The notes under the pieces are model-generated. The model saw nothing but the letters and a program-made list of their open reading frames with translations, searched no databases and was not told the DNA's origin. Shown here piece after piece: positions 1 to 17,228 of a stretch of DNA of 32,000 nt (positions are counted from its first letter, which is position 1; the number at the start of each line of letters is the position of its first letter). The DNA comes from Paenibacillus algorifonticola. Lineage in GTDB: Bacteria > Bacillota > Bacilli > Paenibacillales > Paenibacillaceae. Both the position numbers and the translations under genes were made by a program. The stretch spans positions 175,181 to 207,180 of the forward strand of contig NZ_LAQO01000003.1 in the NCBI RefSeq assembly GCF_000971975.1, written 5' to 3'.

Positions 1-169
1 ATACCGAATTACAAATTGAAATCAACTTAGAAAACCTCACCCAAATTGAAATAACTTGCTTAAAATCCGATTAAGCTTTCATCATTTTGCTTTCTTTAAA
101 TACCACGATATATGCATTTTTTAATAGTGAAATCATTTCTTGATTAAAGTTAGAGGAGAGAATACAAAG

Positions 170-919
170 ATGGATAAGGATCTATTAAAACAGCTCACTC
201 TTTGGCATAACAAGGACCAGTATGAGAAAATCATTAACAAAATTATGGAAATACCCGAAGCAGACAGGGACTATGACTTAGTTTGCCATTTGGCAAGAGC
301 ATTGAATAATCAAGAAAATTATAATGAAGCGATTAAATATTTTTTATCTGTGCAAAAGCAAGGCGAGCATGACCCTCTTTGGCATTATCGATTAGGATAT
401 GCTTATTATTACCTTGAACAGTATAAGGAAGCGATCGTTGCTTTTGAACAAGCTGTAGCACTAGACCCTGAAGATACACATGGCAGGACGTTTTTAGAAA
501 TGAGCCGCAACGCCGCTAGTAGAGCAGGAAATGAAACCATCCCTATAGTTAAAGTTGAACAGGATGAGGGTTTGTTAGAAGTTAATGAAAAAATAAATCC
601 ATTTGGGCTAGTTTCGCATAATAACGGAAGCCTATCAATGATTTTAAGTGTTGGCAAATATAAGCATGAAATTTTTAAAACACGAGCCGAAGAAGGATTT
701 GAGGGCAATGGCTATGATTGGGGTTCATTAGCAGCCGTGTTTCTTGAAGAAAAAATGCCTCATTTAGTTGATATCGTGCGATTTGACCCTGAAGCCGATA
801 TGTTCGCTGCTTATACAGACAATAGAGAAGCAATACTTAGTTTTGCAATAGCCTTTAAGGAAGCATGTGAAGATGACTCATTAATAAAAGACCTATTTTC
901 ACGAGCTGAATTAGATTAA
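170..919 (+). CDS. TPR-repeat protein with C-terminal immunity-protein-like domain (tentatively Imm51-like)
   Basis: ORF 140..919. GAGGAG at 153-158 favours ATG 170 (MDKDLLKQ). The N-terminal half has a TPR-type pattern (YNEAIKYF...WHYRLGYAYYYLEQYKEAIVAFEQAVALDP). The C-terminal ~110 aa (EGNGYDWGSLAAVFL...FDPEADMF) resembles small polymorphic-toxin immunity proteins; that family assignment is from memory only. Confidence 0.6.
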   Translation: MDKDLLKQLTLWHNKDQYEKIINKIMEIPEADRDYDLVCHLARALNNQENYNEAIKYFLSVQKQGEHDPLWHYRLGYAYYYLEQYKEAIVAFEQAVALDPEDTHGRTFLEMSRNAASRAGNETIPIVKVEQDEGLLEVNEKINPFGLVSHNNGSLSMILSVGKYKHEIFKTRAEEGFEGNGYDWGSLAAVFLEEKMPHLVDIVRFDPEADMFAAYTDNREAILSFAIAFKEACEDDSLIKDLFSRAELD

Positions 920-2154: not shown

Positions 2155-2309
2155 CTAATTTTTTAGTATATCTTTTTTTCTGAGAAGAGAAATAAAATTA
2201 GAAAAATCATTGAATATGTAGAACAAACAAATGAAAGGGCATTCCAGGTGTATTAAAGAAACTATCTTATTTGGAAAATTAGAATGCCTAAAAGAAAGTG
2301 GAGATGAAC

Positions 2310-2798
2310 ATGTACATAAGCAAATGGTGGGGAGATTTAATTGGCGGTTCCGATGATTCGCTTGCATTAATAGACTATTTGGAACAATTGGACTTAACGG
2401 ATGTGACGCTCATTCAGATTTTAAAGGACCTTGGTTTCGATATTTTGCTTTCTGAGGGGGACTTGAAAAACGGCGGAAATATTGGATTTGATATGAGAAG
2501 TGCTAACGGCATGTTTCGGGTAGAACTTGATATTGCCTGCGGTGCTCTAATCGATCTTTCAGCCATTGTGCTGGAGAGTCTTAAATCAGGCTATGTCGAT
2601 TTGCATGATTTGGATGAGGCTAGGCAGCCGCGCAAACTTTATATTGATGCCTCCGAAGAAAAAAGAAACCTGCTTCGGGATGAATTGAACAAGTTTTCCC
2701 GTAATCCGCTGTCCTACGATTTAGCCGAGCTTGTTCCGGCCGATGATATGAGGGAGCTTGCGGAAAAGGCAAAAATGATCGCAGATGAGCTGTTATAA
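2310..2798 (+). CDS. hypothetical acidic protein
   Basis: ORF 2298..2798. GGAG at 2299-2302 favours ATG 2310 (MYISKWWGDL). No recognisable motif. Same strand as the neighbouring immunity-like genes. Confidence 0.55.
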   Translation: MYISKWWGDLIGGSDDSLALIDYLEQLDLTDVTLIQILKDLGFDILLSEGDLKNGGNIGFDMRSANGMFRVELDIACGALIDLSAIVLESLKSGYVDLHDLDEARQPRKLYIDASEEKRNLLRDELNKFSRNPLSYDLAELVPADDMRELAEKAKMIADELL

Positions 2799-3118: not shown

Positions 3119-4420
3119 TTGATTTTTAGAATATTCAAACCATTAATCACAGTAATCGTCGTTTGTATACTGGCAATATATGTGTTACCGCTCTCAGTTT
3201 CAGCCACGAACCAAGGAACACTTAACTCATCGGGGATGTCTGACATACCGACTGTGGAATCATTGCATCTTAATGTTAAATCCGCCATTCTCATTGAACA
3301 AACTACAGGAGATGTTCTATTGTCCATCAATGCCGATCAGGGCTTTGCGCCGGCAAGTATGGTCAAAATGATGACAGAGTACATTGTTGCCAAAAAAGTT
3401 AGAACAGGAGAACTATCCTGGGATGACATCGTTACAGTCAGCGATCATGCATCTAAAAGCATAGGTACCCGTGCATTTCTTGCAGAAGGAGATCAGCATA
3501 CGGTAAAAGAACTGTACACCGCAATGGCAGTGGGATCCGCGAATGATGCTGCGATTGCTCTTTCTGAGCATGTATCGGGCACAGAACAGAACTTTGTAAC
3601 ACTTATGAATGAGGAAGCCAAACGCATGGAACTGACTAAAACCCATTTTATCAATGCTACCGGACTGAGCCGCGCCGACATGCCAGAAGGCTTTCGCCCT
3701 GATGAAATGGGAGAAACGCTGATGTCAGCAAAAGACGTGGCCACATTGGCGAAAAACCTTATTCAAGATGAACCAGATTATGCTGATGTCACATCCATTC
3801 CATTTTACAAGATGCGTAAGTCCGATAAAGATCCAATTGTCAATTCAAACCGGATGCTAGAGACTAACAAAGCTATTCCGAGTTATGCTTATGAGGGCTT
3901 GGATGGGCTCAAGACAGGATATACCGAAAGCGCAGGCTATTGCTTTACCGGAACTGCAGAGCGCAATGGTATGCGTTTAATCAGTGTTGTCATGGGGACT
4001 CCATCGATGGGGAGCCGCTTCGAAGAGACGGCAAAGGTATTAGACTATGGATTCAATCACTTTACAATGAATCAAGTAATTCCTGCTGGGAGTTTAGTCA
4101 CTGGGATGGAAACATCTCCTGTCAAGGGCGGGAAAGAAAAAAATGTTCAGATAGTAACAAAAGATGATGTTTATTTTATTCTCCCGAAATCAGATGTATC
4201 TACACAACCTATTGCTACAGTCAATTTAGTTCCAGGTGGGCTCGCTGCCCCTGTGGTAGCTGGTACAAAAGCTGGAACGGCGACATTTACTTACGTAGTC
4301 AAAGGGCAAAGCGTCGTACAATTAAGAACTGTTGATTTAATCACTGAGCGAACAGTGGAGAAAGAAAACTGGTTTATGTTACTTCTTCGGTCAATTGGTG
4401 GTTTCTTTAGTGCTGATTAG
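3119..4420 (+). CDS. D-alanyl-D-alanine carboxypeptidase (PBP5/DacA-like, serine-type)
   Basis: 433-aa ORF. It has an N-terminal signal/anchor (ITVIVVCILAIYVLPLSVSA), SxxK (ASMVKMMT), SxN (GSANDAA), KTG (LKTGYT) and a C-terminal amphipathic tail (WFMLLLRSIGGFFSAD). TTG start with GAGGA about 10 nt upstream. Confidence 0.9.
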   Translation: MIFRIFKPLITVIVVCILAIYVLPLSVSATNQGTLNSSGMSDIPTVESLHLNVKSAILIEQTTGDVLLSINADQGFAPASMVKMMTEYIVAKKVRTGELSWDDIVTVSDHASKSIGTRAFLAEGDQHTVKELYTAMAVGSANDAAIALSEHVSGTEQNFVTLMNEEAKRMELTKTHFINATGLSRADMPEGFRPDEMGETLMSAKDVATLAKNLIQDEPDYADVTSIPFYKMRKSDKDPIVNSNRMLETNKAIPSYAYEGLDGLKTGYTESAGYCFTGTAERNGMRLISVVMGTPSMGSRFEETAKVLDYGFNHFTMNQVIPAGSLVTGMETSPVKGGKEKNVQIVTKDDVYFILPKSDVSTQPIATVNLVPGGLAAPVVAGTKAGTATFTYVVKGQSVVQLRTVDLITERTVEKENWFMLLLRSIGGFFSAD

Positions 4421-5083: not shown

Positions 5084-5749
5084 GTGTACACACCAATCCC
5101 CATGAAGCGCAGCACTCGATACGGTAATAATTATTGGGAAGCATTCAGCGTCAAAATGAATCGAGATGTACGATTTTTTAGTGACCTGGAATACGATCAT
5201 TGGATTCTCGTTGAAGCTGATTCGGACATTGTTGCCTTCTGTGAACAGCCCAAGCGAATACAAGTCGAATGGCAAGGAGAATTGGTAGAATCCATTTTTG
5301 ACATGTGGATTCAGCGAATGAACGGAACGGAGTGCTTCTTGGAAGTGAAATACGCTTCTGAACTTGACCCTAACGACAAAAGATTTTCATCAAGATCTTA
5401 TAAACAAACGAATGCTCAAGCAAAATGGTGCCAAGAAAATGGTTACAATCATCTCATTCGAACCGATAAAGACATCCGATCAAACTTGATTTATTTGAAT
5501 AATTTGAAAACTATCATACCATACATTCAACAACGCCCTGTTCTTGTGGAAACGGTCCAATATCAAATTATGAATGTTCTAGGTAAGACCTCCAAAACCA
5601 CGATAGAAGGGATAGAACAAGCGCTTCCGGTTCTTGGTCGTCAACGGATTCGGGAAACTGTGTATCAGCTGATTTATCGGGGAATGATTGACTCTACAAT
5701 CACTCACAAACCTTTAGATTCAAAAACAGAGGTGTGGAGCAATGCCTAA
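5084..5749 (+). CDS. tnsA: TnsA-like transposition endonuclease
   Basis: 221 aa with GAGGTGA before GTG 5084. Restriction-endonuclease-like E/D/K triad context (SDLEYDHW, SIFDMWI, FLEVKY), as in Tn7 TnsA. Its 3' end overlaps tnsB by 8 nt. Confidence 0.85.
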   Translation: MYTPIPMKRSTRYGNNYWEAFSVKMNRDVRFFSDLEYDHWILVEADSDIVAFCEQPKRIQVEWQGELVESIFDMWIQRMNGTECFLEVKYASELDPNDKRFSSRSYKQTNAQAKWCQENGYNHLIRTDKDIRSNLIYLNNLKTIIPYIQQRPVLVETVQYQIMNVLGKTSKTTIEGIEQALPVLGRQRIRETVYQLIYRGMIDSTITHKPLDSKTEVWSNA

Positions 5750-7706
5750 AAAAAGATGGATTGAGAATGAGAAAATTGATCCGGCACATTTAGATACATC
5801 AATCTGGCCGATTGTTCATGAAGATAAATTGGATTCTAATGACAAAGAGACTTTTTTTGCGAGAAAAAAGGCCATCGACATGTATATGAAGAATGAGCGC
5901 CCACTCCATGAAATTAGCGCCGTTACACTCATTGACAGGAAAGATATATTGGCATTTGTGAAGAGATGCCTTTCTTACGATGACCAAGGTAGAATCTGGG
6001 GTTATAGAGCACTTATTCCCAGGAAACGTTTAAAACAATATGAACGCAAGTCTCTACCTATATTATCAACGCAGGACGAGCTATCCAAAATGACGGGCGC
6101 TTTTACATTGCTATTAAAGCAGTATCCTACCGTTAAAGAAACGATTGACAATTTGTATTTGGGTAGAAATACAAAACGAGAAGTACGATCCCCTAAAATT
6201 AGTGTGAAAGATCTTCATGGTAAACTCTTGGATGCCTGTACGAAGGCAGGTATTACATCCAGTGAATATCCATTTATAAGTGGAGATTTAGGAAAACGGT
6301 CGTTATATCGTTATGTCGATATTCTTGAACAATGGCATTTTGGCGAAGCCGCTAAACGCTACGGTGAGAATGCAAGTCAAAAAGCAAGACATACAGGAAT
6401 AGGCGCTCCGAATGCCCCTTCACCAGTTAGACCTTTGGAACGTGTTCAATTTGACGGACATCGAATAGATTGTTCAATTGCCATCGTGTTCCACACGCCA
6501 GAAGGCGACGAAATTGTGGAGGTAATGGATCGCCTTTGGTTACTCTGCATCATTGATGTTGCGACAAGAATCATCTTGGGTCACCATCTTAGCTTTAATA
6601 AGGAGTATTCCGCTAGCGATGTACTGCATTGCATTAAAAAAGCTGTCATGCCCAAAGAAGTGCTTCAATTAACAATCCCAGGATTAACTTATCACCCGAA
6701 TGGCGGTTATGCATCAAGGCTGTTTCCTGAAATGGAATGGGCTTTGTGGGATGAGTTTCATCTTGATAATGGTAAATCTAATTTAGCGAATCAAGTCAGA
6801 GATCGACTAAAACGAACCATAGGTTGCTCGGTTAATGCTGGTCCTGTGGCATTGCCAATGAGAAGAGGAATAATTGAAAGGTTTTTCGAAACGTTAGAAG
6901 AAAATGGGTTCCATCGTCTAGTAAACACAACCGGCAGCAACCCAAAAGATCCACGACGGCAAGATCCGGAGAAAAAAGCAGTGAAATATCGGATTACCGC
7001 TGAGCACATAGAAGAACTGACAGATGTACTCATATCCAACTACAACGGAACGAAACATGAAGGAATAAATCTTTTGACACCGCTGCAATGTTTAGAACAA
7101 CGTTTAAACAGAGGTTTACTTCCACGAGTTATGACTGAGGAAAAGAGACAGGAAATCGCTTTTCTTTCTCTTGCAGCAAATCGAGTTGTTCAAGGAAACA
7201 TTAGCCAAGGAAAGCGTCCTTTTATTTATTACGAGGGGACTGAATATCGTAATGAAGTATTATCACGAAGTCCTGAACTTATTGGTACCCCATTAGATCT
7301 ACTGGTGAATATCGACGATCTCCGAGTAATTAGAGCATTTTTGCCTGATGGAAGTGAGTTTGGCACACTTACGGCCAATGGAAAATGGGGTATTACGCCG
7401 CATTCACTTCAAGTTAGAAAACAGATAAACAAATTAAAAAAGTTGAAAATACTGCATTTCACCAATTACGATGATCCAATTGAATGCTATCACAGATATT
7501 TGCAAGAACAGGCTAAAACGAGCCGATCGGATCGTAATCGGTTAGCTGCACTTCAACGAAGTAAAAAAAAGGAGAAAGAGAAATTGGTCTCCAAAGAGGT
7601 TCTTCCTGATGATACTCAGAGCGAAAATGTTGTTCCATTAATAGAAGCATCCACTAAAAAGAGTATGAATATAGATCGAAAACGGTTTAGGACCATTACT
7701 TATTAG
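5742..7706 (+). CDS. tnsB: TnsB-like DDE transposase (retroviral-integrase superfamily)
   Basis: 654 aa. Candidate DDE residues sit in VQFDGHRID, FHLDNGKSN and GIIERFFETLEE, with about 105 and 36 aa spacing, similar to Tn7 TnsB. Basic C-terminal tail. Confidence 0.88.
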   Translation: MPKKRWIENEKIDPAHLDTSIWPIVHEDKLDSNDKETFFARKKAIDMYMKNERPLHEISAVTLIDRKDILAFVKRCLSYDDQGRIWGYRALIPRKRLKQYERKSLPILSTQDELSKMTGAFTLLLKQYPTVKETIDNLYLGRNTKREVRSPKISVKDLHGKLLDACTKAGITSSEYPFISGDLGKRSLYRYVDILEQWHFGEAAKRYGENASQKARHTGIGAPNAPSPVRPLERVQFDGHRIDCSIAIVFHTPEGDEIVEVMDRLWLLCIIDVATRIILGHHLSFNKEYSASDVLHCIKKAVMPKEVLQLTIPGLTYHPNGGYASRLFPEMEWALWDEFHLDNGKSNLANQVRDRLKRTIGCSVNAGPVALPMRRGIIERFFETLEENGFHRLVNTTGSNPKDPRRQDPEKKAVKYRITAEHIEELTDVLISNYNGTKHEGINLLTPLQCLEQRLNRGLLPRVMTEEKRQEIAFLSLAANRVVQGNISQGKRPFIYYEGTEYRNEVLSRSPELIGTPLDLLVNIDDLRVIRAFLPDGSEFGTLTANGKWGITPHSLQVRKQINKLKKLKILHFTNYDDPIECYHRYLQEQAKTSRSDRNRLAALQRSKKKEKEKLVSKEVLPDDTQSENVVPLIEASTKKSMNIDRKRFRTITY

Positions 7707-7719
7707 CGGAGGGAGAGTC

Positions 7720-8730
7720 ATGGTAAATCAACCTAGTCCCATCGAAAAAAGTTCTGCCTTGTCACCGCCAAGACCGTATGTGGCTCAAGGTACTCATCCC
7801 ATTGAGACCGGAAGATACCTGCTGCCGACGAACGAAATTATTCGTATGTATGATACCGTTGCCCAATGGATCACAAATCGTTCACCCGGCGGGATGATTT
7901 ACGGCAGACCGAGACTCGGGAAATCAAGAGCCATTACGTATCTTTCATACGAACTTCCGAATGAATTCGGTAATCATCTCCCGATATTTACTATGAAATG
8001 TCGACAATACAAACAACCGAGTGAGAGTAGCTTCTTTGAAGATATATTGAATGATGTAGGGCACGCTTTGCCCTTTAACGGAAAAGCCAATTTAAAAAGA
8101 GATCGACTATATCGATACTTTGTAGAAAAGGCTGAACGCTCAGCTCAAAAACGTATTATTTTGTTCATCGATGATGCTCAACGTCTTTTTGAAATTCAAT
8201 ATGGCTGGTTGATGGATATTTACAACGAACTTGATAGTTCAGGCATTAGCATGACAGTTATCTTGGTTGGACAGGAGGAACTTGTTCATCAACGCAGCGC
8301 ATTTATTCAAGCCAAGAAAGCTCAGATCATCGGAAGATTTATGGTTCACGAATTCAATTTTAAAGGAATAGTCGACGCCGATGATATGGCTGTTTGTTTG
8401 TCCGGTTACGACAATATTTCAGAATATCCTGAAAATAGCGGATGGTCCTTTACACGTTACTTTTTTCCAGATGGGTTTGATCATCATGGATGTCGTCTTG
8501 AGAATTGTGCAAAGGATCTATTTAGCATATTTACGAATCTTCGCAAAGAACACGGACTTACAAGAGCAACTGAAATACCAATGCAATATTTAACGCTAAC
8601 AGTTGAAAATGCACTTCGTCATTTTGGAGCAAATGGAGAGGATCTTCACTGGCTGAACAATGAGCAATGGAAATCCTCGATTACTAGCTCTGGTTACATT
8701 GAAGCCGAGACATACCACGAAGTGGTATGA
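7720..8730 (+). CDS. tnsC: TnsC/TniB-like AAA+ ATPase transposition regulator
   Basis: 336 aa. Walker A GRPRLGKS and Walker B ILFIDDAQ. GGAGGGAG RBS. Lies between tnsB and tniQ. Confidence 0.85.
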   Translation: MVNQPSPIEKSSALSPPRPYVAQGTHPIETGRYLLPTNEIIRMYDTVAQWITNRSPGGMIYGRPRLGKSRAITYLSYELPNEFGNHLPIFTMKCRQYKQPSESSFFEDILNDVGHALPFNGKANLKRDRLYRYFVEKAERSAQKRIILFIDDAQRLFEIQYGWLMDIYNELDSSGISMTVILVGQEELVHQRSAFIQAKKAQIIGRFMVHEFNFKGIVDADDMAVCLSGYDNISEYPENSGWSFTRYFFPDGFDHHGCRLENCAKDLFSIFTNLRKEHGLTRATEIPMQYLTLTVENALRHFGANGEDLHWLNNEQWKSSITSSGYIEAETYHEVV

Positions 8731-10193
8731 GAAAACTAAAATGTGTTTTTCCTGAGTATAAAGAAATACAGAGGCAATTCACTTGGAATCCGGACTGGAT
8801 CTCAGATTACGAATCACCTTGGGGAATTTTCGAAAAATTTAAGTACGCAAATTGCGTTACGGCAAAAGATATTCTGTTCCAATTCGGTAATGAGGAAGTA
8901 TTAAGTAGAAGATCCATAAGTTACAGTCAACAGAATTGCAATCTAATTGATATGCCCCGATTGAACAATGAAAGTATTACAAACATCTTGAAATTAGACG
9001 TAAAAGCTAGAAATCAAGAGTTTATGAACCTGATGGCATTTGTTCCGAGACATCGTCCTTATCAAGATTTTTTTCGCAAACAGCTTACATTCTGCTTAAC
9101 GTGCATGAAGAAAGGCTTTCACAGCATATTAAACCAATTCTCGTTAATTCATGTATGTCCTATCCATGGAGATCCATTGTCGGACCGCTGTCCGATATGC
9201 GATAAATCTTATCCGTATCGTCTCGGTGATGATGCGTTAACTGCACCGTTTCAATGTTCCTGTGGCCATCAATATTTAAGCGGTACTTGTAATTATTCGG
9301 AGTTATGGGAATCCAAACCCGTAATCCAATCAACCGAAGTGGCTGATTGGATATCCATGCACTATAAACAAAAGATCAATTTTAATGATCTCATTTTGTC
9401 CAGTGAAATTTCGTTTCGTAATTTACAAGGTGGCATGGATTTTATTTTGCAGGCAGTCGATCCAAGTTATAAATCAATTCAGCCCGAAAAACATTATGTG
9501 GTTAAGTCGCCGTCAAGAATCATGGTTTACGGAAATTATAATAAAGAATTCGAATCCATTAGAGAGTCTGGCAGTGATGAGAGGTACCTCAGATTCATTG
9601 AAAAAATAAACGAACTGATTTACCAGAGCAATAGAAGCACCTTCTATGCGATTGCTAAACACTTGAGAGCTACAATCCTTCGGGATCATATCGCTTGTGT
9701 TAGAAAGTTAGAACTGTTTGATACCAAATGCCCTTATGCGTTTGCATATGTAAATTGGAAAAAATTTATTGAAGGACATACACATACGCGACAGGTAGAC
9801 AATAAATATCGGCCTTCAAGAGAACGAAGCAAATATGAAATGGAGTTCATCTCAAAACAAGACGACTCGGCATTATGGGATATTATCACCAAGTGGGAAT
9901 ATGGCAAGCCCTATTGGAAGTATAAACATCTTACAGCAACAATTTGGATTATCAACAGAGTGCTTGCTCATTTCGCTCTCAATCATTTTTACAGCTGGTT
10001 AGAAATCGCTAAGAATACGGAATCACTTGGCTTGGAGTTTGATAATGTTCCTTTTCGTTACGAAAACGTTCCGTTTTTTCTTATCAAACTACCTCGTGAC
10101 AATGAAAAGGAACTAGAGTTCCATTGGTGGCTTAAGGACCATGATCAAAACAAGCCCCATTTGGTGTGCCCATTCAAAACTGGTTTCGGATAA
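8727..10193 (+). CDS. tniQ: TniQ/TnsD-like target-selection protein
   Basis: 488 aa; its ATGA start overlaps the tnsC stop. Cys/His cluster CLTCMKKGFH...VCPIHGDPLSDRCPICD, typical of the TniQ/TnsD zinc-finger region. Size is close to Tn7 TnsD. Confidence 0.75.
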   Translation: MRKLKCVFPEYKEIQRQFTWNPDWISDYESPWGIFEKFKYANCVTAKDILFQFGNEEVLSRRSISYSQQNCNLIDMPRLNNESITNILKLDVKARNQEFMNLMAFVPRHRPYQDFFRKQLTFCLTCMKKGFHSILNQFSLIHVCPIHGDPLSDRCPICDKSYPYRLGDDALTAPFQCSCGHQYLSGTCNYSELWESKPVIQSTEVADWISMHYKQKINFNDLILSSEISFRNLQGGMDFILQAVDPSYKSIQPEKHYVVKSPSRIMVYGNYNKEFESIRESGSDERYLRFIEKINELIYQSNRSTFYAIAKHLRATILRDHIACVRKLELFDTKCPYAFAYVNWKKFIEGHTHTRQVDNKYRPSRERSKYEMEFISKQDDSALWDIITKWEYGKPYWKYKHLTATIWIINRVLAHFALNHFYSWLEIAKNTESLGLEFDNVPFRYENVPFFLIKLPRDNEKELEFHWWLKDHDQNKPHLVCPFKTGFG

Positions 10194-10288: not shown

Positions 10289-10954
10289 ATGGATATTGAC
10301 TTAAACAAATTGCGTGATACCGGATGGATTTTCTTAAGGGGAGAGAAGTCACTGAAACAAGATAATCTACTAAAACTAGCAAACACCTTGGGTGAACCAA
10401 TTCCATCGAGGGCAACTGGTACCCTAGTTGATACACTAATGCCTGTAGATACGAAGAAGGCAAGACCAAATTCATTGAGCGCATTATATGGGACAGGTCA
10501 TTTTCCATTACATACTGATACTGCTTATAAAAAAGTTCCAGCAAGATATATTTTATTGTATGCAAAGCAAATTGAGGGTGAAGTTCAGTCAACAACTTTA
10601 ATAGATCTTGAGAAAATTAAGTTTTCTCAAGATCTTGAAGAGCGTTTAGATAGATGTTTATACACCATTATAAATAGTCGGCATAGTTTCTTGGCTACTC
10701 TACGTGGATATAGCAATACTCACAGAAAGAACTGGATCAGGTTCGATACAAGCTGTATGCTCGCAACGAATAAGGAATCAACTGTTACAATAAACGAGCT
10801 TAATGAATCGATCTCCAAAGTTACATTGGATACAATAAACTGGACTCAAGGCGATATATTGATCATAGATAATTGGCGTTGTTTGCATGGACGAGGAGTA
10901 GCTAATTCGAGCGCCAAAGCAGTTCGGGTTATAGAAAGAGTTACAATACAATAA
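10289..10954 (+). CDS. TauD/TfdA-like Fe(II)/2-oxoglutarate dioxygenase (transposon cargo)
   Basis: 221 aa. HxD facial-triad motif in GHFPLHTDTAY, and a distal His/Arg in IIDNWRCLHGRG (the family's DN....H.R pattern). Short for the family. GGAGCG RBS. Confidence 0.6.
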   Translation: MDIDLNKLRDTGWIFLRGEKSLKQDNLLKLANTLGEPIPSRATGTLVDTLMPVDTKKARPNSLSALYGTGHFPLHTDTAYKKVPARYILLYAKQIEGEVQSTTLIDLEKIKFSQDLEERLDRCLYTIINSRHSFLATLRGYSNTHRKNWIRFDTSCMLATNKESTVTINELNESISKVTLDTINWTQGDILIIDNWRCLHGRGVANSSAKAVRVIERVTIQ

Positions 10955-10971
10955 GAAATACGGAGGCCATT

Positions 10972-11865
10972 ATGATAGATTACGAATCCTTATGGAACAA
11001 ATCTAAATTATACATGGGAAAAGCAATTAACAAACGTGACGAAGGGGATTTCGCTGAGTTTCAACTCTGGGCATCTCTTTTTTTGGAACTCTTAGGGAAG
11101 GCTGCATTAGCATATAAGCACCCGTCATTGATTGTTGATCCCAACACTCCACACGGATTCTTGGTTGCTATTAACGAGTCTCAGAGCACAGATTTTAAGA
11201 CAATTACAGCAAAAACAGTATTTGAACGCCTTCAAAACTTAGTAAATGTCCCCCGTTTTGATGCTGATACAAAGAAATTTTGCATGACTCTAGCAAATCA
11301 CAGAAACGAGGAATTGCACTCGGGAGCACTTCCTTTCGTAGGAATGAGTATGGACCACTGGCTGCCAAAGTTTTGGGATGTATGTAAAATGCTTCTTGAG
11401 TTTCAAAACAAATCGTTACGTGATCTGCTCGGACCAAGAGAGGCAAGAGCGACAGAAGAGATTATTCAAGCTCGGTCCGTCAGTTTGAAGGCGATAATTG
11501 AAGCTCGAATTCAGAGACATCGTACAGAAGTGAGGATAAAATACGAAGGTCCTGTTCCTCGTGATGTGTTGAAAGTGATCCCTGTATTATCAGATGATGA
11601 TCAGGAAACCACTACATGCCCTTCTTGCGGCAGCCACGCTGTAATATACGGAGAAATTTTAGATGAAGGACCAGAGTATATCGACGAGGAAGAGCCGTGG
11701 ATAACATACCAGGATAATCAATATGAAATCACGTCATTAAAGTGTAGAGTTTGCGATTTGAAACTAAATAGTTTAGACGAGGTAACGGCCGCCGGCATAG
11801 ATCATACGTTTGAGAAAACAATTACTATTGAGCCTGATTATGAACCCGAATACGGAAATGACTAA
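10972..11865 (+). CDS. HEPN-motif protein with C-terminal zinc ribbon (transposon cargo)
   Basis: 297 aa; starts 17 nt after the dioxygenase gene, with an ACGGAGG RBS. The helical N-terminal domain carries LANHRNEELHSG, i.e. the R-N-x3-H (Rx4-6H) HEPN ribonuclease signature. The C-terminus has paired CxxC (CPSCGSHA...CRVCDLK). Confidence 0.55.
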   Translation: MIDYESLWNKSKLYMGKAINKRDEGDFAEFQLWASLFLELLGKAALAYKHPSLIVDPNTPHGFLVAINESQSTDFKTITAKTVFERLQNLVNVPRFDADTKKFCMTLANHRNEELHSGALPFVGMSMDHWLPKFWDVCKMLLEFQNKSLRDLLGPREARATEEIIQARSVSLKAIIEARIQRHRTEVRIKYEGPVPRDVLKVIPVLSDDDQETTTCPSCGSHAVIYGEILDEGPEYIDEEEPWITYQDNQYEITSLKCRVCDLKLNSLDEVTAAGIDHTFEKTITIEPDYEPEYGND

Positions 11866-11998
11866 TATGCGGCTTAATAAAATGAATGAGATAATTTAGA
11901 TTTGGGATTATTATTTTAAGAAATGGTGTTCAATAGCCTGAATTTGTTTTTTCGTAAATTGATTGGTACATTCACCAAAATAACTAGAGGTGCATACA

Positions 11999-13777
11999 AT
12001 GAGCCATATTCGTATAGAGGGCATACAAGTCCAAAATTACAGGTCATTTGGCCAAGCAGTAACAGTTCATTTTCCTAATAGCGATTTTAAAAAACCAGTA
12101 GCAATAGTCGGGTACAATAATGCAGGTAAGACGAATTTTCTTAATTCAATTTTGTACGGAATAACAGAAAAGTATGTGACTAAAGACACCTTTACAATTA
12201 ACGACTTTCACAAAAGGAAATTTAGCAATATACCTAAAATTGTAACTAAAGTAAGCAGTAGTAGCGAGCCTAAAGTTGAATGGGGGACTGCAAATCTCAC
12301 TGGATATCATTTTTTAGAAATCAAACTCGATGGTCATGAAATAGAGAGCACAAAAATTAGTTCCTATGATGACTACAATCAAAGTAGCAGGAGTTCTAGC
12401 GCTTTCGGTGCAGCAAAGTATTTTAAAATATTCTACATAAACTTCCATGAAATAAAAAAAGAAATATCGACAAAGAAAACGAGTTGGGGAAACCTGTCTT
12501 CTTTTCTTGCAAAGCATATCAGAAGCATAGTGGATACAGATAATATTATGGTTGGAAAAAAAGATGTTTTTAAAGGAGAAGTAAAAAGCGCGACTGATAA
12601 AGTTCTTGCAGACTCTAAATTAAATGAATTTCTTGGAAAAATACAAATTAATTATTCAACAAATTTAAGGCAGAATCAGTGCCACATTGAATTTGGATTA
12701 CCTGATTATGAAGATATATTTTTAGAGATGATGTTTAAAGTGGGTCTTAACGGAGACATGGATAATCTGGTGCCAATCGACCATTTCGGCGATGGTTACA
12801 TTTCTATGTTTGTTATGGCAGTAATTCAAGCAATAGCAGAGAGCAACGGAACCGACAAGTGCCTGTTTTTATTTGAAGAACCTGAGAGCTTTCTACATGA
12901 AAATCACCAAGAATATTTCTACAAAACCGTTCTTTGTGGATTAGCGGAAAAGGGACATCAAGTAATTTATACAACACATTCTGATAAAATGTTGGATATC
13001 TTTGATACCCGAGGCTTGATTCGTTTTGAATTTGATGAAATAACCAAACAAACTGTTCTGAAATACAACAAACATGATAAAGAAATTTTTGAAGATTCAG
13101 ATGAAGAAGCACTTTCTGAAATAAAAGACTATTACAATTATATTAAGCTAATTGATCCAAATCTTAATAAAATAATATTCAGTAAAAAAGTGCTACTAGT
13201 AGAAGGTCCCAATGACCTGATGACGTATAAAGAAATTATCAGAAGAAATGTATTGGATATCACTGCTGATGATAAGTATGCTGCTACATATTTGAATTTT
13301 AATAATATCTCAATAATTCCACATCATGGTAAAATTACTGCTTCAATTTTAATCAAGCTCTGCAAACATTTTGGAATTGATTATTTTGTGATTAATGATT
13401 TCGACTTTGAACAAGATTTTGTCTCAGAACTCACCTTTACATCAATCGATGAGTTGCAAAAAAGCCATCTATATAACGATGGATTAGAAGAAATCATTGT
13501 TTTTAATTCCAAAGGTGAAGCAATGAATGCTAAAACCAAACGTTCAATGATAACAACAAATTGGAGATTAATTTCGGAATCATCTCCTGCGAAAATACAT
13601 TTTAACATTCCAAAACTAGAGTCAGTTATAGGCTATGACTCTAATGACAAAAGCAGTGTTGGAATTTGGAACACACTTAAAAAGACCTCTCATTTTGGAG
13701 AGGAGATCTTCCCAGCAAAACTTCAAGAATTCCTTGAAATAACTCAGATCAAGAAGAAGCATGAGGGACAAAATTAA
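11999..13777 (+). CDS. OLD-family nuclease (ABC-type ATPase + Toprim) (transposon cargo)
   Basis: ORF 11990..13777. AGAGG favours ATG 11999 (MSHIRIEGIQVQNYRSF). Walker A GYNNAGKT, Walker B/D-loop LFLFEEPESFLH and H-loop YTTHS, with a long insertion between A and B as in OLD/GajA. The C-terminal Toprim has LLVEGPND and VINDFDFE. Confidence 0.8.
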   Translation: MSHIRIEGIQVQNYRSFGQAVTVHFPNSDFKKPVAIVGYNNAGKTNFLNSILYGITEKYVTKDTFTINDFHKRKFSNIPKIVTKVSSSSEPKVEWGTANLTGYHFLEIKLDGHEIESTKISSYDDYNQSSRSSSAFGAAKYFKIFYINFHEIKKEISTKKTSWGNLSSFLAKHIRSIVDTDNIMVGKKDVFKGEVKSATDKVLADSKLNEFLGKIQINYSTNLRQNQCHIEFGLPDYEDIFLEMMFKVGLNGDMDNLVPIDHFGDGYISMFVMAVIQAIAESNGTDKCLFLFEEPESFLHENHQEYFYKTVLCGLAEKGHQVIYTTHSDKMLDIFDTRGLIRFEFDEITKQTVLKYNKHDKEIFEDSDEEALSEIKDYYNYIKLIDPNLNKIIFSKKVLLVEGPNDLMTYKEIIRRNVLDITADDKYAATYLNFNNISIIPHHGKITASILIKLCKHFGIDYFVINDFDFEQDFVSELTFTSIDELQKSHLYNDGLEEIIVFNSKGEAMNAKTKRSMITTNWRLISESSPAKIHFNIPKLESVIGYDSNDKSSVGIWNTLKKTSHFGEEIFPAKLQEFLEITQIKKKHEGQN

Positions 13778-13805
13778 AAAAATTAACAGAAGGGGCAAAG
13801 AAAAA

Positions 13806-14927
13806 ATGTCAACTTTTCACAAAACTTTCGATGAAGTGAACGAAGACGATTTGAAATTTTTTATTGAAAGTGGAGCTACAGAAGGGTTACAGCTCGAATT
13901 TAAAGAAACGATTTCAAATAACATTAGTCTAGTTGAAGAGGTGGCTGCATTTGCAAATACACAAGGTGGAGATCTATTTATTGGAGTGAAGGAAAGGGAA
14001 GGAACTCCGATTGAGGTTACCGGCATTGATATCAACCCCGATCAAGAAATTTTAAAGTATAAGCAATGGGTAGAAACTAATACTGATCCAGCTCTTACAA
14101 ATATATTGTACAGACATATTTCCTTGACCGGTGGAGGGCACGTTATCCATATACGCGTACCAAGGAGCTGGAATGGGCCACATATGGTTAAGAATTTTAA
14201 GTTTATGTTACGTACAGCCTCTGCTAAAGTCCCTGCAGGTACATCTGATATTAGAAGAATGATGAATGTTAGAGATCATTTTCTTGATCAATACAATCGA
14301 TTTCGTGTACAACGTATAGAAAAAACATTAAACATATATAAACAAGAGACGCCCTTTGTACTAGTTCACTTCTTACCGACTTCTGCTTTTAATATTGAAT
14401 CAAATTATCCTATAGTCGAAAGGCGAAGTAGTATTAATCTTTCTGTGTTAGGTGGATCAGGATATAACCAGGGCATAAATGCCCATGGATTATACTATCA
14501 ATCTATAGGAACCAATGGTTATAGGGGGCATACCCAAATATTTCGGAATGCTATTATAGAACAAGTGTCAAATATGTCGTTTAATTATCGTAAAAGCTAT
14601 GAAGAGCCACGTAAAGAGTTTTTTAGCACTACACATTTTGAAAATTCACTAAGAGATTCAATTCTTAATCAAATAAGGAATTATGAACAGCTGAACATGC
14701 AAGATCCCTTTTACATATTCGTTAACCTAATTGGGGCGAGTGGAGTAATAGGACATTCATATGGGGCATATTACATTTCAGCTCCTCAAGCAATCGATGA
14801 TGATTTACTTCAGCTGCCAGAAACTATGATTGATCCGATTGCAAATCTAGATCTAGAAGTGATTTTATCAACGATTATTAACTATTTATGGAATGCCTTT
14901 GGGTTTGTAAGCAAACCAGAACAATGA
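13806..14927 (+). CDS. Schlafen/AlbA_2-domain protein with unknown C-terminal domain (transposon cargo)
   Basis: ORF 13761..14927. GAAGGGG favours ATG 13806 (MSTFHKTF), 28 nt after the OLD gene stop. N-terminal EGLQLEFKE...VAAFANTQGGDLFIGVKE is the AlbA_2 (Schlafen-like) signature. The ~230-aa C-terminal part is unassigned. Confidence 0.7.
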   Translation: MSTFHKTFDEVNEDDLKFFIESGATEGLQLEFKETISNNISLVEEVAAFANTQGGDLFIGVKEREGTPIEVTGIDINPDQEILKYKQWVETNTDPALTNILYRHISLTGGGHVIHIRVPRSWNGPHMVKNFKFMLRTASAKVPAGTSDIRRMMNVRDHFLDQYNRFRVQRIEKTLNIYKQETPFVLVHFLPTSAFNIESNYPIVERRSSINLSVLGGSGYNQGINAHGLYYQSIGTNGYRGHTQIFRNAIIEQVSNMSFNYRKSYEEPRKEFFSTTHFENSLRDSILNQIRNYEQLNMQDPFYIFVNLIGASGVIGHSYGAYYISAPQAIDDDLLQLPETMIDPIANLDLEVILSTIINYLWNAFGFVSKPEQ

Positions 14928-15034
14928 CACAAATGTGCCCTCAATCATTTAGTTGATTGAGGGCACATTTGTGTCAAAACCCTTATTGAGGGTATTGTTG
15001 AGTCGTCATTGGGAGGGATTTGAGTCATTAGACA
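14925..15034. repeat. distal transposon end with four TnsB-type binding repeats
   Basis: There is a perfect 23-bp inverted pair: TGACACAAATGTGCCCTCAATCA (14925-14947) and its complement (14954-14976). Two more minus-oriented copies follow (14985-15008 and 15008-15034), the last ending in the ACA terminus. Confidence 0.8.
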
Positions 15035-15141: not shown

Positions 15142-16212
15142 TTATCGGTCCATGTTATCTACAGCTTTCCTCATCTCTTCATCTGTTAGATGTGTATATA
15201 TCATTGTTGTTTGTATCGATGAATGTCCTAATTGATTTTTTAATCTCGGGACATCATTGTTCTCTAGATGGTATCGTGTTGCGAAAGAATGTCTTAGTGA
15301 ATGTACGGTTAAAGCTGGTTTCCCAAAAGCAGTTGCATATTTTTCGATTAGTTTTTCAATGGATCTTTGCGTTAAGCGCCGGCTTTTTCCTTTACGGCCG
15401 ATAGGAGCTGCAATAAACAAAAAGGGTTCCAGTTTTTCTGGTTTGTATCTTGATTCTCGAATTTGTAGATAACTTTCCACATCTAATAATGCTTGCTTGC
15501 TGAAGTAAACGTATTGTTCTTTATTGCCTTTGCGTATCACTCGTACGATAGCTTTACTTAAATCCAGATCTTCCAGGTTAATGCCGGCAACCTCAGAAAG
15601 CCTAAGTCCGGAGCCTAAAATAAGAGATACGATCGCTGTATCCCGTTCACGATTCATCTGATGGAAATGATATATCCGTTTATTCTCTTTATTTACTTCT
15701 CCGAAATCATGGGCTACAAATTGTCTAAACGCCTCAAATTCGTCTTCTCTGAGAATTTTCCCTTCAATACGGTTCGCAATGGTTTCCTGGCTTTCCTTGA
15801 CGACATTTAAATCCATTTTGGCCATGACATTACGCTGAATATATGGCTTTAGCTCAGCGGTCTCAGCCTTGTTCTGCAGGTAATCAAACAAGGATTTCAG
15901 TGACGATAACTTGCGATTAATCGTGAGATTTGTATTACCCAGCTGATACTCTAAAAAAGATAAAAAATTCTCTACTTCACGGATCGTCAGCGTTTCTAAT
16001 GAAGCTAAACTAATCTCTGTACGGCTGGCCGTTGTTAAGTTTTCTGCAACCAACCAGTCAAAAAATATAATGTAATCATGGCAATAATTAAGAAGCGTTG
16101 TTGGAGAAAGCTTGCGTTTACGGCTATCAATAAATTCAGTCACGAACCACGGCAATTGATTTATTTTTTCATCTATGCGATTCATGTAATGAAGCTTCAT
16201 TTGTTTGTCCAT
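15142..16212 (-). CDS. tyrosine site-specific recombinase, XerS-like architecture
   Basis: 356 aa with a GGAGG RBS. C-terminal catalytic signature: SGLRLSE (Arg), LRHSFATRY (H/R), GHSSIQTTMIYTH (His, Tyr). Length and N-terminal layout (LPWFVTEFIDS...SPTTLLNY) resemble streptococcal XerS as I recall it. Confidence 0.8.
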   Translation of the reverse strand: MDKQMKLHYMNRIDEKINQLPWFVTEFIDSRKRKLSPTTLLNYCHDYIIFFDWLVAENLTTASRTEISLASLETLTIREVENFLSFLEYQLGNTNLTINRKLSSLKSLFDYLQNKAETAELKPYIQRNVMAKMDLNVVKESQETIANRIEGKILREDEFEAFRQFVAHDFGEVNKENKRIYHFHQMNRERDTAIVSLILGSGLRLSEVAGINLEDLDLSKAIVRVIRKGNKEQYVYFSKQALLDVESYLQIRESRYKPEKLEPFLFIAAPIGRKGKSRRLTQRSIEKLIEKYATAFGKPALTVHSLRHSFATRYHLENNDVPRLKNQLGHSSIQTTMIYTHLTDEEMRKAVDNMDR

Positions 16213-16715: not shown

Positions 16716-17228
16716 ATGATTTCAGAACAAGACTTGAAGCATTTACAACGCTGTGTGGAACTTGCGCGAGTTGCACTAGTAAACGGAGATGAACCGTTTG
16801 GTTCCCTTCTAGTCGATCAACAAGGTAATGTGTTGGAAGAAGACTTTAATCATGTTTCTGGGGGTGATCCTACCCAACATCCAGAATTTGCTTTGGCACG
16901 ATGGGCTGCTAAGCATATGACACCAGAGGAGCTCGCACAAGCAACTGTATATACTTCTGGGGAACATTGCCCGATGTGTGCAACTGCTCATGCTTGGGTT
17001 GGATTAGGCCGTATTGTATATGCGAGTTCCTCTGCTCAACTAGTTCAATGGATGAATGAACTAAACGTCCCCCCAGCGCCTATCTACAATTTGTACATTC
17101 AGGAGATCATTCGCAATGTGAAAGTTGATGGTCCTATACCTAAGTTATCTGACCAAATCAAAGCACTACATGTTGAACTGCACCAACGAACAAATGAGAG
17201 TACCTCTATAATAGAAGAGAAAATTTAA
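16716..17228 (+). CDS. CDA-fold nucleoside/nucleotide deaminase (guanine/cytidine deaminase-like)
   Basis: 170 aa. Zinc-binding H-x-E (QHPEFALA) and PCxxC (EHCPMCATA) motifs of the cytidine/dCMP deaminase superfamily. Confidence 0.8.
   Translation: MISEQDLKHLQRCVELARVALVNGDEPFGSLLVDQQGNVLEEDFNHVSGGDPTQHPEFALARWAAKHMTPEELAQATVYTSGEHCPMCATAHAWVGLGRIVYASSSAQLVQWMNELNVPPAPIYNLYIQEIIRNVKVDGPIPKLSDQIKALHVELHQRTNESTSIIEEKI

Follow-up and report, generated by a model that had tools for sequence, protein, structure and literature searches.

An obligate pairing of a minimal Fe(II)/2-oxoglutarate oxygenase with a HEPN-type protein in the Tn7-like cargo of Paenibacillus algorifonticola

HEPN ribonucleases (RNases) count among the most frequent effectors in bacterial immunity and in toxin-antitoxin (TA) systems, and are known to be controlled by nucleotidyltransferases, by sensors of cyclic oligonucleotides and by protein antitoxins. 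A 32,000-nucleotide (nt) stretch of the genome of Paenibacillus algorifonticola (contig NZ_LAQO01000003.1, positions 175,181 to 207,180; hereafter the window, in whose numbering positions are given) raises the question of why a gene for a TauD/TfdA-like oxygenase dependent on Fe(II) and 2-oxoglutarate (2OG) should stand directly before a gene for a HEPN-type protein in the cargo of a Tn7-like transposon. No defence or TA system using a 2OG oxygenase was found in PADLOC, in PHROGs or in a literature search, and the pair is described here as a HEPN toxin/defence module with an unprecedented class of enzyme partner. The stretch from 10289 to 11865 probably constitutes an autonomous conflict module of HEPN effector and oxygenase, made up of the following elements:

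10289 to 10954, plus strand: gene A, 221 amino acids (aa), a minimal TauD/clavaminate-synthase-like Fe(II)/2OG oxygenase (list of open reading frames, Pfam)
10955 to 10971, plus strand: A-B spacer of 17 nt, without a terminator, with the Shine-Dalgarno sequence GGAGG at 10962-10966, five bases before the ATG of gene B
10972 to 11865, plus strand: gene B, 297 aa, with a HEPN-type domain, a long helix, a C4 zinc ribbon and an acidic C-terminal tail

The pair is not confined to one genome: about 1,100 clusters of B proteins (E <= 1e-10), more than 10 phyla and many mobile carriers are involved. If the oxygenase does modify the toxin, protein hydroxylation would join the mechanisms of toxin control, and growth arrest would be tied to oxygen, iron and central-carbon status. 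Under the current annotation, a taurine or herbicide dioxygenase followed by a 'hypothetical' or 'CxxC' protein, the pair may be misread as metabolic.

Linkage and co-inheritance of the two genes

A reading of the letters and open reading frames (ORFs) of the window (the sequence-only reading) had measured a separation of 17 nt between the two genes, which is confirmed, and had proposed co-occurrence across genomes as a check on the pairing. Two independent samplings were used for this purpose. The first was seeded with B and took one genome per species (GTDB), yielding 75 loci from a pattern-limited scan; the second scanned metagenomes with nothing but a TauD peptide pattern as seed and yielded 80 loci. 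In the first sampling, every intact B gene directly follows a TauD gene of the family, in the same orientation. In the second, B occurs in every locus with room downstream of the TauD gene except L131 (4677-6460), the sole in-family TauD gene so placed that is without a B partner. A convergent ORF of 278 aa at that locus (5624-6460, minus strand) contains an RNxxxH motif (ARNCLVH); it has no Pfam match, and its comparison with the B profile by hhalign shows no relationship.

Altogether, about 160 loci, spread over more than 10 phyla, have A directly upstream of B, usually with an overlap of 4 or 8 nt. The overlap between the A stop and the B start measures 8 nt at 36 loci and 4 nt at 23, together 59 of 74 loci. 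The two proteins also diverge in parallel (mirror-tree Mantel r = 0.897 over 117 unique pairs, a value reached by 0 of 999 permutations). On account of this linkage, overlap and co-divergence the genes are considered to be inherited as a unit, and the pair is obligate: virtually all genomes, plasmids, prophages and metagenome loci that were examined show the two linked, as the sequence-only reading would require. Both families are large. A profile search of 1.84 billion representatives returned 1,897 B clusters (50% identity) at E <= 1e-3 and 1,119 at E <= 1e-10, and the A profile retrieves 1,075 proteins.

Loci in which one of the genes is damaged are informative as to the roles of the two products. 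Both genes are intact in 119 of the pooled loci L011-L173. A is intact with B broken or absent in 12 loci and is absent in 8, in all of which B is truncated or fragmented; A is damaged beside an intact B in two (L017 and L170), one a frameshift-like split in a metagenome-assembled genome and the other a divergent viral copy. No locus has an intact B with A absent. The excess of intact A with broken B over intact B with damaged A fits B as a toxin and A as its antitoxin. Among the TauD-less loci (L013, L077, L078, L081, L082 and L085) B is 5'-truncated or fragmented; that of a Cohnella sp. (L013, 6055-6837) encodes a B protein 81% identical to that of the window which lacks the first 19-37 codons, so that A and the start of B were apparently removed by one deletion.

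The two proteins

Gene A matches the Pfam TauD family (PF02668) with 54.5 bits (2.1e-14), above the cut-off of 27. A profile built from 92 family members and searched against the sequences of the PDB finds NapI (9e-17) and CAS1 (1.5e-16), followed by KDO1, VioC/OrfP and AsnO, making clavaminate-synthase-like amino-acid hydroxylases the nearest solved relatives. The AlphaFold2 (AF2) model, with a predicted local distance difference test (pLDDT) score of 93.9, shows the double-stranded beta-helix fold and matches the TauD family over its whole length (Foldseek PDB E 5e-12, TMq about 0.76); matches include BBOX1, IsnB, CarC, CsiD, OrfP, AsnO and CAS (E 5e-12 to 1e-10, TMq 0.70-0.77). The TauD/clavaminate-synthase fold expected by the sequence-only reading is therefore present. 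The residues predicted to bind iron and 2OG are the following:

10511 to 10519, plus strand: H75-T-D77, the first two iron ligands of the facial triad, aligned with CAS1 H144/E146
10592 to 10594, plus strand: T102, the predicted 2OG-binding Thr, aligned with CAS1 T172
10886 to 10927, plus strand: H200 (third iron ligand), R202 and R213 (the Arg for the 2OG C5-carboxylate), H200 and R213 being aligned with CAS1 H279 and R293

The CAS1 residues H144, E146, H279, T172 and R293 are those that we take, from the published CAS1 structures, to be the iron and 2OG ligands of that enzyme. Conservation was counted over 66 family members from different phyla. H75 is found in 66/66, residue 77 is D in 39 and E in 27, T102 and H200 are each kept in 65/66, and R202 and R213 in 66/66. 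R151, D153, N195 and R217 are also invariant, while C156 and W196 are nearly so (65/66 each). The motifs PLHTDTAY and DNWRCLHGRG, singled out by the sequence-only reading in an unusually short protein of 221 aa, are thus present and contain H75 and H200, respectively. Since the ligand residues are conserved and align with those of CAS1, A is predicted to be a working oxygenase, and a degenerate enzyme was rejected as a reading on the same grounds.

The alignment of A with its relatives of 320-360 aa starts only at about their residue 100-130, and neither the AF2 model nor Foldseek reveals a nucleic-acid-binding or other additional domain. The protein is a bare catalytic core of 221 aa, and sequence conservation predicts it to be catalytically competent in this reduced form. 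Databases name its relatives 'TauD/TfdA family dioxygenase', 'alpha-ketoglutarate-dependent taurine dioxygenase' or 'L-asparagine oxygenase'; however, no substrate-defined NCBIfam equivalog (TauD, AsnO, VioC, CAS, GlaH and others) comes near its cut-off, the scores being 10-45 bits overall and 13-44 bits for the best matches vs 268-450.

B was modelled with a pLDDT of 92.4. Helices 1 and 2 (residues 4-23 and 27-49), an insert (50-97) and helices 3 and 4 (98-117 and 127-144) are followed by a helix of 37 residues (155-191), a beta-rich region (211-286) and a low-confidence tail of some 10 residues. The features of B in the window are:

10972 to 11406, plus strand: HEPN-like four-helix domain, residues 1-145 (AF2 secondary structure compared with the HEPN definition of PMC3710099)
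11086 to 11100, plus strand: E39-L-L-G-K43, the Ex3K motif in helix 2 (motif as in PMC3710099)
11302 to 11319, plus strand: R111-N-E-E-L-H116, the putative catalytic Rx4H motif at the end of helix 3 (AF2 and alignment)
11617 to 11754, plus strand: zinc-ribbon core C216-x2-C219 ... C258-x2-C261 on long beta hairpins (AF2 and alignment)
11830 to 11862, plus strand: disordered acidic tail I-E-P-D-Y-E-P-E-Y-G-N-D-COOH, with a pLDDT of about 60 in the last block

HEPN domains are defined by Ex3[KR] in helix 2 and by Rx4-6H, with a polar residue after the R, ending helix 3 (PMC3710099). B agrees with this definition in its four-helix layout, its Ex3K in helix 2 and the RNx3H that closes helix 3. In an alignment (A3) of 79 homologues that are 36-98% identical, E39, K43, R111, N112, H116 and S117 are invariant, and RNxxxH is kept in nearly all metagenomic and representative homologues. 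The four Cys of the ribbon (C216, C219, C258 and C261), carried by a domain with strands 211-215, 222-238 and 241-258, are likewise invariant, and the region has only weak Zn-ribbon matches in Pfam. Both the LANHRNEELH segment and the double CxxC noted from the letters are therefore borne out, with the RNEELH motif located inside a four-helix bundle.

Profile and structure searches were less decisive as to a relationship with established HEPN members. The PADLOC profiles HEC-08 (5.4e-7) and DUF3644 (2.1e-6) match residues 38-116, and among the 79 members 25 match DUF3644 and seven HEC-08. The HMM of B shows no relationship to any of 118 neighbour proteins, two bona fide Pfam DUF3644 proteins included, so that homology of B to DUF3644 is remote at best. 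The best-ranked Foldseek PDB matches are HEPN proteins (AbiV, HepT, 1wol and 2hsb; target-normalised TM up to 0.62), all with E > 1; of the HEPN/DUF4145-like fold anticipated for B, the four-helix HEPN layout was recovered, whereas the likeness to solved structures is qualitative only. The viral BFVD library yielded no meaningful Foldseek match to B, a search of the B profile against PDB sequences gave matches at chance level only, and no recognisable ligand-sensor domain such as CARF was seen in Pfam or in the AF2 model. B is presumably a metal-independent RNase of HEPN type that is active as a dimer.

The C-terminal tail of B, a feature absent from the sequence-only reading, is the best mechanistic clue that the pair offers. 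Y294, G295 and N296 are invariant in alignment A3. Among 361 distinct full-length homologues, N occupies position -2 in 320 and D in a further 9, while 320 have Y at position -4 and 312 have D or E at position -1; among the matches listed, 120/120 end in [DEG]YGN[DEC]. A divergent clade has tails such as DDNNE, DDNNER and DDNNEP(F), in which N-[D/E] is kept. The motif always stands at the exact C-terminus.

Comparison with known systems and candidate mechanisms

The nearest parallel to the pair is the HEPN-MNT module, in which an enzyme neutralises a HEPN toxin by covalent modification, MntA AMPylating HepT (PMC11586414). Gene order and proposed logic are the same, a predicted Rx4H HEPN RNase being encoded just downstream of a coupled enzyme gene, but an Fe(II)/2OG oxygenase here takes the place of the minimal nucleotidyltransferase, and B is longer (297 aa, against about 130 for HepT) and carries a zinc ribbon as well as an acidic tail. 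The acceptor motif of HepT, which we take to be defined as Rx4HxY with an acceptor Tyr, is absent from B, which reads RNEELHSG, with S117 invariant and no Tyr at +2. As both partner and HxY motif fail to agree, the pair is not assigned to HEPN-MNT.

HEC-08, the best PADLOC match of B, is a validated single-gene phage defence in which the His of Rx4-6H is required (Payne et al. 2024, preprint, 10.1101/2024.01.29.577857). It resembles B in having an N-terminal DUF3644-type HEPN domain followed by C-terminal zinc-ribbon/zinc-finger modules; however, it is a single-gene system of Hma loci whereas B is obligately preceded by a TauD gene, the match of B covers only positions 50-122 of the 358 of the profile and occurs in 7/79 members, and neither an oxygenase partner nor a YGN[D/E] tail has been reported for HEC-08. 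Given the partial match and the lack of a partner gene in HEC-08, the pair is not regarded as HEC-08. The DUF3644/EC042_2821 family consists of HEPN proteins of conflict loci with an Rx4-6H motif and sometimes a zinc-ribbon fusion (Anantharaman et al. 2013, PMC3710099). B shares the combination of HEPN Rx4-6H and zinc ribbon, and the 25/79 PADLOC matches point the same way, but the described members are fused to winged helix-turn-helix and restriction endonuclease domains in restriction-modification operons and do not stand beside an oxygenase.

On the side of the oxygenase, A has the same fold as the clavaminate-synthase-like hydroxylases (CAS1, AsnO, VioC/OrfP, NapI and KDO1; SyrP is presumably another), with the same HxD/E...H triad and the same Thr and Arg at the 2OG site. 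These enzymes carry out beta-hydroxylation on Asn, Asp, Arg or Lys. They differ from A in having 320-360 aa and in belonging to biosynthetic clusters, in which the 221-aa protein is never found. No joint system emerged from PADLOC-DB v2.0.0, in which A has no match at E <= 1 and B has partial matches to single-gene HEPN models only; PHROGs has no family for either protein, and the literature search retrieved no description of a HEPN-TauD pairing. The statement of the sequence-only reading that a 2OG dioxygenase is not a known partner of HEPN proteins holds for these sources.

We infer a scheme for the RNase activity and toxicity of B, the action of A on it, the Asn target and the trigger that would make the module a translationally coupled toxin-antitoxin or abortive-infection unit carried as mobile-element cargo. 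B would be the effector, an RNA-cutting, growth-arresting HEPN RNase with a zinc ribbon and a flexible tail, and A would restrain it enzymatically after the logic of type VII TA systems. That A controls B by catalysis is a tentative proposal whose chances we place slightly below even. The likeliest target would be the penultimate Asn (rarely Asp) of the B tail, modified by beta-hydroxylation, which we consider distinctly more doubtful. If A ran short or became inactive, B made from then on would escape modification, cut RNA and arrest growth; this could happen when a phage takes over the cell, when the element is lost or when O2, Fe(II) or 2OG becomes scarce.

The tail is favoured as the substrate of A because the nearest relatives of A hydroxylate Asn, Asp, Arg and Lys, because the constrained residue of the tail is Asn and occasionally Asp, because the tail is flexible, and because A is a stripped core with many invariant Arg that would suit an acidic peptide. 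In the most far-reaching and speculative form of this proposal, continuous hydroxylation of the tail Asn would gate the toxin by O2, Fe(II), 2OG or oxygenase synthesis, representing a new class of TA or immune switch with sensing like that of HIF/FIH; it is no less speculative that such sensing would serve to detect phage takeover or loss of the mobile element. Conceptual precedents exist for both halves of the idea: TomB inactivates the toxin Hha by oxygen-dependent oxidation, and an Asn near the C-terminal end of HIF-1alpha, in its C-terminal region, is the target of the hydroxylase FIH. Both differ from the present proteins in belonging to unrelated families, and no sequence or fold relationship is claimed. 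All 75 species of the B-seeded scan, itself pattern-limited, presumably fall in aerobic or facultative lineages, which is weakly consistent with oxygen-dependent chemistry.

Several points weigh against hydroxylation of a toxic HEPN protein at its tail. About 10% of the B representatives have other tails, and conservation of the tail could serve another partner or a degron. The match of B to DUF3644/HEC-08 is weak and limited to about 80 residues, Pfam DUF3644 (PF12358) does not match B at E <= 0.1, and the structural likeness to solved HEPN proteins is not significant (best Foldseek PDB E 1.3). The asymmetry of gene integrity is small and confounded by the comparison of isolate genomes with metagenome assemblies. 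The TauD/CAS-like enzymes characterised to date have, to our knowledge, small molecules or carrier-tethered amino acids as their substrates and not protein tails, and the protein Asn/Asp hydroxylases FIH and AspH belong to other 2OG subfamilies.

A different substrate is the first alternative to be considered, and we judge it rather unlikely. The sequence-only reading had already named a nucleotide, a nucleic acid or a small-molecule signal as possible targets. The oxygenase might act on a nucleotide, a modified base of tRNA or rRNA or a small metabolite, and the module would then be one of RNA-level restriction-modification or signalling: A would either shield the cell's own RNA from B or else produce or remove a ligand by which B is controlled, and the tail would serve some other purpose, for instance docking of a partner or autoinhibition. 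An obligate pairing of modifying enzyme and nuclease is a signature of restriction-modification, and both the conserved catalytic residues of A and the small-molecule substrates of all its solved relatives agree with it; however, the bare core of A offers no nucleic-acid-binding or extra domain, B has no recognisable sensor such as CARF for a ligand, and the near-invariant N-[D/E] C-terminus would be left unexplained. We know of no member of the TauD/CAS-like clade that acts on nucleic acids, AlkB and TET/JBP being different 2OG oxygenase subfamilies.

It is less probable again that A is a binding-only antitoxin of type II character, or a sensor, which sequesters B, perhaps by its tail, with its chemistry irrelevant or vestigial; B would be released when A is degraded or is captured by a phage protein. 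An upstream, overlapping gene is typical of antitoxin-toxin pairs, A and B diverge in close parallel, and the invariant R151, R202, R213 and R217 could grip an acidic tail. Against this stands the full set of iron and 2OG ligands, conserved in a family with a mean pairwise distance of 0.65, which is difficult to explain unless catalysis is under selection; for this reason binding alone is disfavoured with respect to enzymatic restraint of B.

An ordinary metabolic role, in which A would be a dioxygenase for taurine, sulfonates or phenoxy herbicides, or else would hydroxylate amino acids, and B would be a redox CxxC protein, is very improbable and was rejected. It is the reading conveyed by the current database names of A, and a study of a Ralstonia outbreak interpreted an acquired 'TauD/TfdA dioxygenase' and 'CxxC motif protein', which may be the A-B pair, as genes for herbicide degradation and oxidative stress (10.1101/2024.10.16.618685 / PMC13540745). 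The NCBIfam equivalog scores quoted above are far below their cut-offs, however, and the obligate partner has an invariant HEPN motif. The context is non-metabolic as well: the pair is carried, in the company of defence and TA genes, by transposons, integrative and conjugative elements (ICEs), plasmids and prophages, and no transporter, regulator or pathway gene is conserved among 118 flanking genes. The possibility, raised beforehand, that the pair might map to a known metabolic pathway finds no support in these data.

Carriers, neighbours and the rest of the window

The flanking-gene survey on which the last statement rests covered the 118 nearest neighbours of the pair in 60 genomes. No third gene is conserved, and no family exceeds 11/118. 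The most recurrent neighbours are ATPases of the AAA_21/AriA/AbiLi/HEC-01A type (11/118), followed by OLD (4), HipA (3), DUF3644 (2) and SLFN_AlbA_2 (2); type IV secretion system coupling proteins, helicases, methyltransferases and integrases also recur. All of these recurrent families are ones of conflict or mobility. Tn7-like carriers are found in the window, in Guptibacillus (L001) and in Paenibacillus polymyxa (L002), and an ICE of Afipia/Bradyrhizobium carries the pair adjoining Fic and an ABC-3C system. By tblastn the pair was located on 55 plasmids, 32 of them conjugative, while blastn of the pair against plasmids gave no match. Some of the plasmid sites adjoin Gabija-like genes (Ketogulonicigenium), VapBC (Shinella) or a TrlF ATPase (a P. 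aeruginosa plasmid), and the conjugative carriers include plasmids of P. aeruginosa and Agrobacterium and megaplasmids of Ralstonia. On the megaplasmid of Ralstonia solanacearum CIAT_078 (L174, 2000-3903) it is unannotated in PLSDB and has a 4-nt overlap, the TauD protein reading FPLHTD...DNWRMLHGRS and the B protein having RRNEELH, two CxxC and the tail EDDNNE. P2-like prophages carry the pair as a moron, placed between the genes for the tail tube and the tape measure; three IMG/VR sequences (L167, L168 and L169; e.g., L168 7240-8912) have it between tail sheath/tube and tape-measure/gpU genes, adjoining a FitA-like ribbon-helix-helix gene.

The closest relatives of the locus are in Paenibacillus, with B 93% identical. 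Around the pair, the window contains the following genes outside the module:

5084 to 10193, plus strand: Tn7-like transposition genes (Pfam matches), comprising the next four
5084 to 5749, plus strand: TnsA-like gene (Pfam)
5742 to 7706, plus strand: ORF of 654 aa in the TnsB position, between the TnsA-like and TniB-like genes
7720 to 8730, plus strand: TniB/TnsC-like gene (Pfam)
8727 to 10193, plus strand: TniQ gene (Pfam)
11990 to 14927, plus strand: OLD-family ATPase-TOPRIM gene (PADLOC Old 2.3e-33) and SLFN_AlbA_2 gene (Pfam 6.7e-16)

The 654-aa ORF has no Pfam match at E <= 1e-3, rve included, and may be a very divergent transposase. With this set of genes upstream, transposon cargo, as the location had been called, is a fair description. 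The OLD gene starts at GTG 11990 or, more likely, at ATG 11999, leaving 124 or 133 nt after B, close to the 125 bp given previously. The SLFN_AlbA_2 gene (13761-14927, plus strand) overlaps it by 17 nt, and the guanine-plus-cytosine (GC) content of the stretch formed by both is 31-36% vs about 40% around it, so arranged that the two look like a separate two-gene unit. The SLFN_AlbA_2 protein has weak matches to ABC-3C CTD6 and LmuA.

Whether the four genes form one system or two had been left undecided, and two is the answer: the pair is autonomous and the OLD and Schlafen-like genes are a separate neighbour, as no third gene is conserved and OLD is among the neighbours in only 4/118 cases. 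That the four genes of 10289-14927 (TauD, HEPN, OLD and Schlafen-like) act as one system is accordingly most improbable and was rejected, for although they share a strand with no plus-strand terminator predicted from 10100 to a hairpin at 14927-14974, and two Paenibacillus relatives (L011 and L012) keep an ORF of 595 aa, the length of OLD, directly downstream of the pair, the OLD and SLFN_AlbA_2 families are rare neighbours in the 60 other genomes, the genes next to the pair in its other carriers (Tn7-like elements, ICEs, plasmids and prophages) are unrelated, and OLD and SLFN overlap each other while the gap and the drop in GC content set them apart from the pair.

The hairpin at 14927-14974 is perfect, with a stem of 20 bp, and lies between the SLFN gene and a convergent tyrosine recombinase gene (15142-16212, minus strand). 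It probably serves as a terminator in both directions, and the cargo may end here. Upstream of the Tn7-like element are genes for a TPR+Imm51 protein (140-919, plus strand) and an Imm68 protein (2298-2798, plus strand), which are immunity families of polymorphic toxins, followed by a D-Ala-D-Ala carboxypeptidase gene (3119-4420). Just past the recombinase gene is a gene of the cytidine/deoxycytidylate deaminase family (16716-17228, plus strand) with a match to MafB19-like deaminase.

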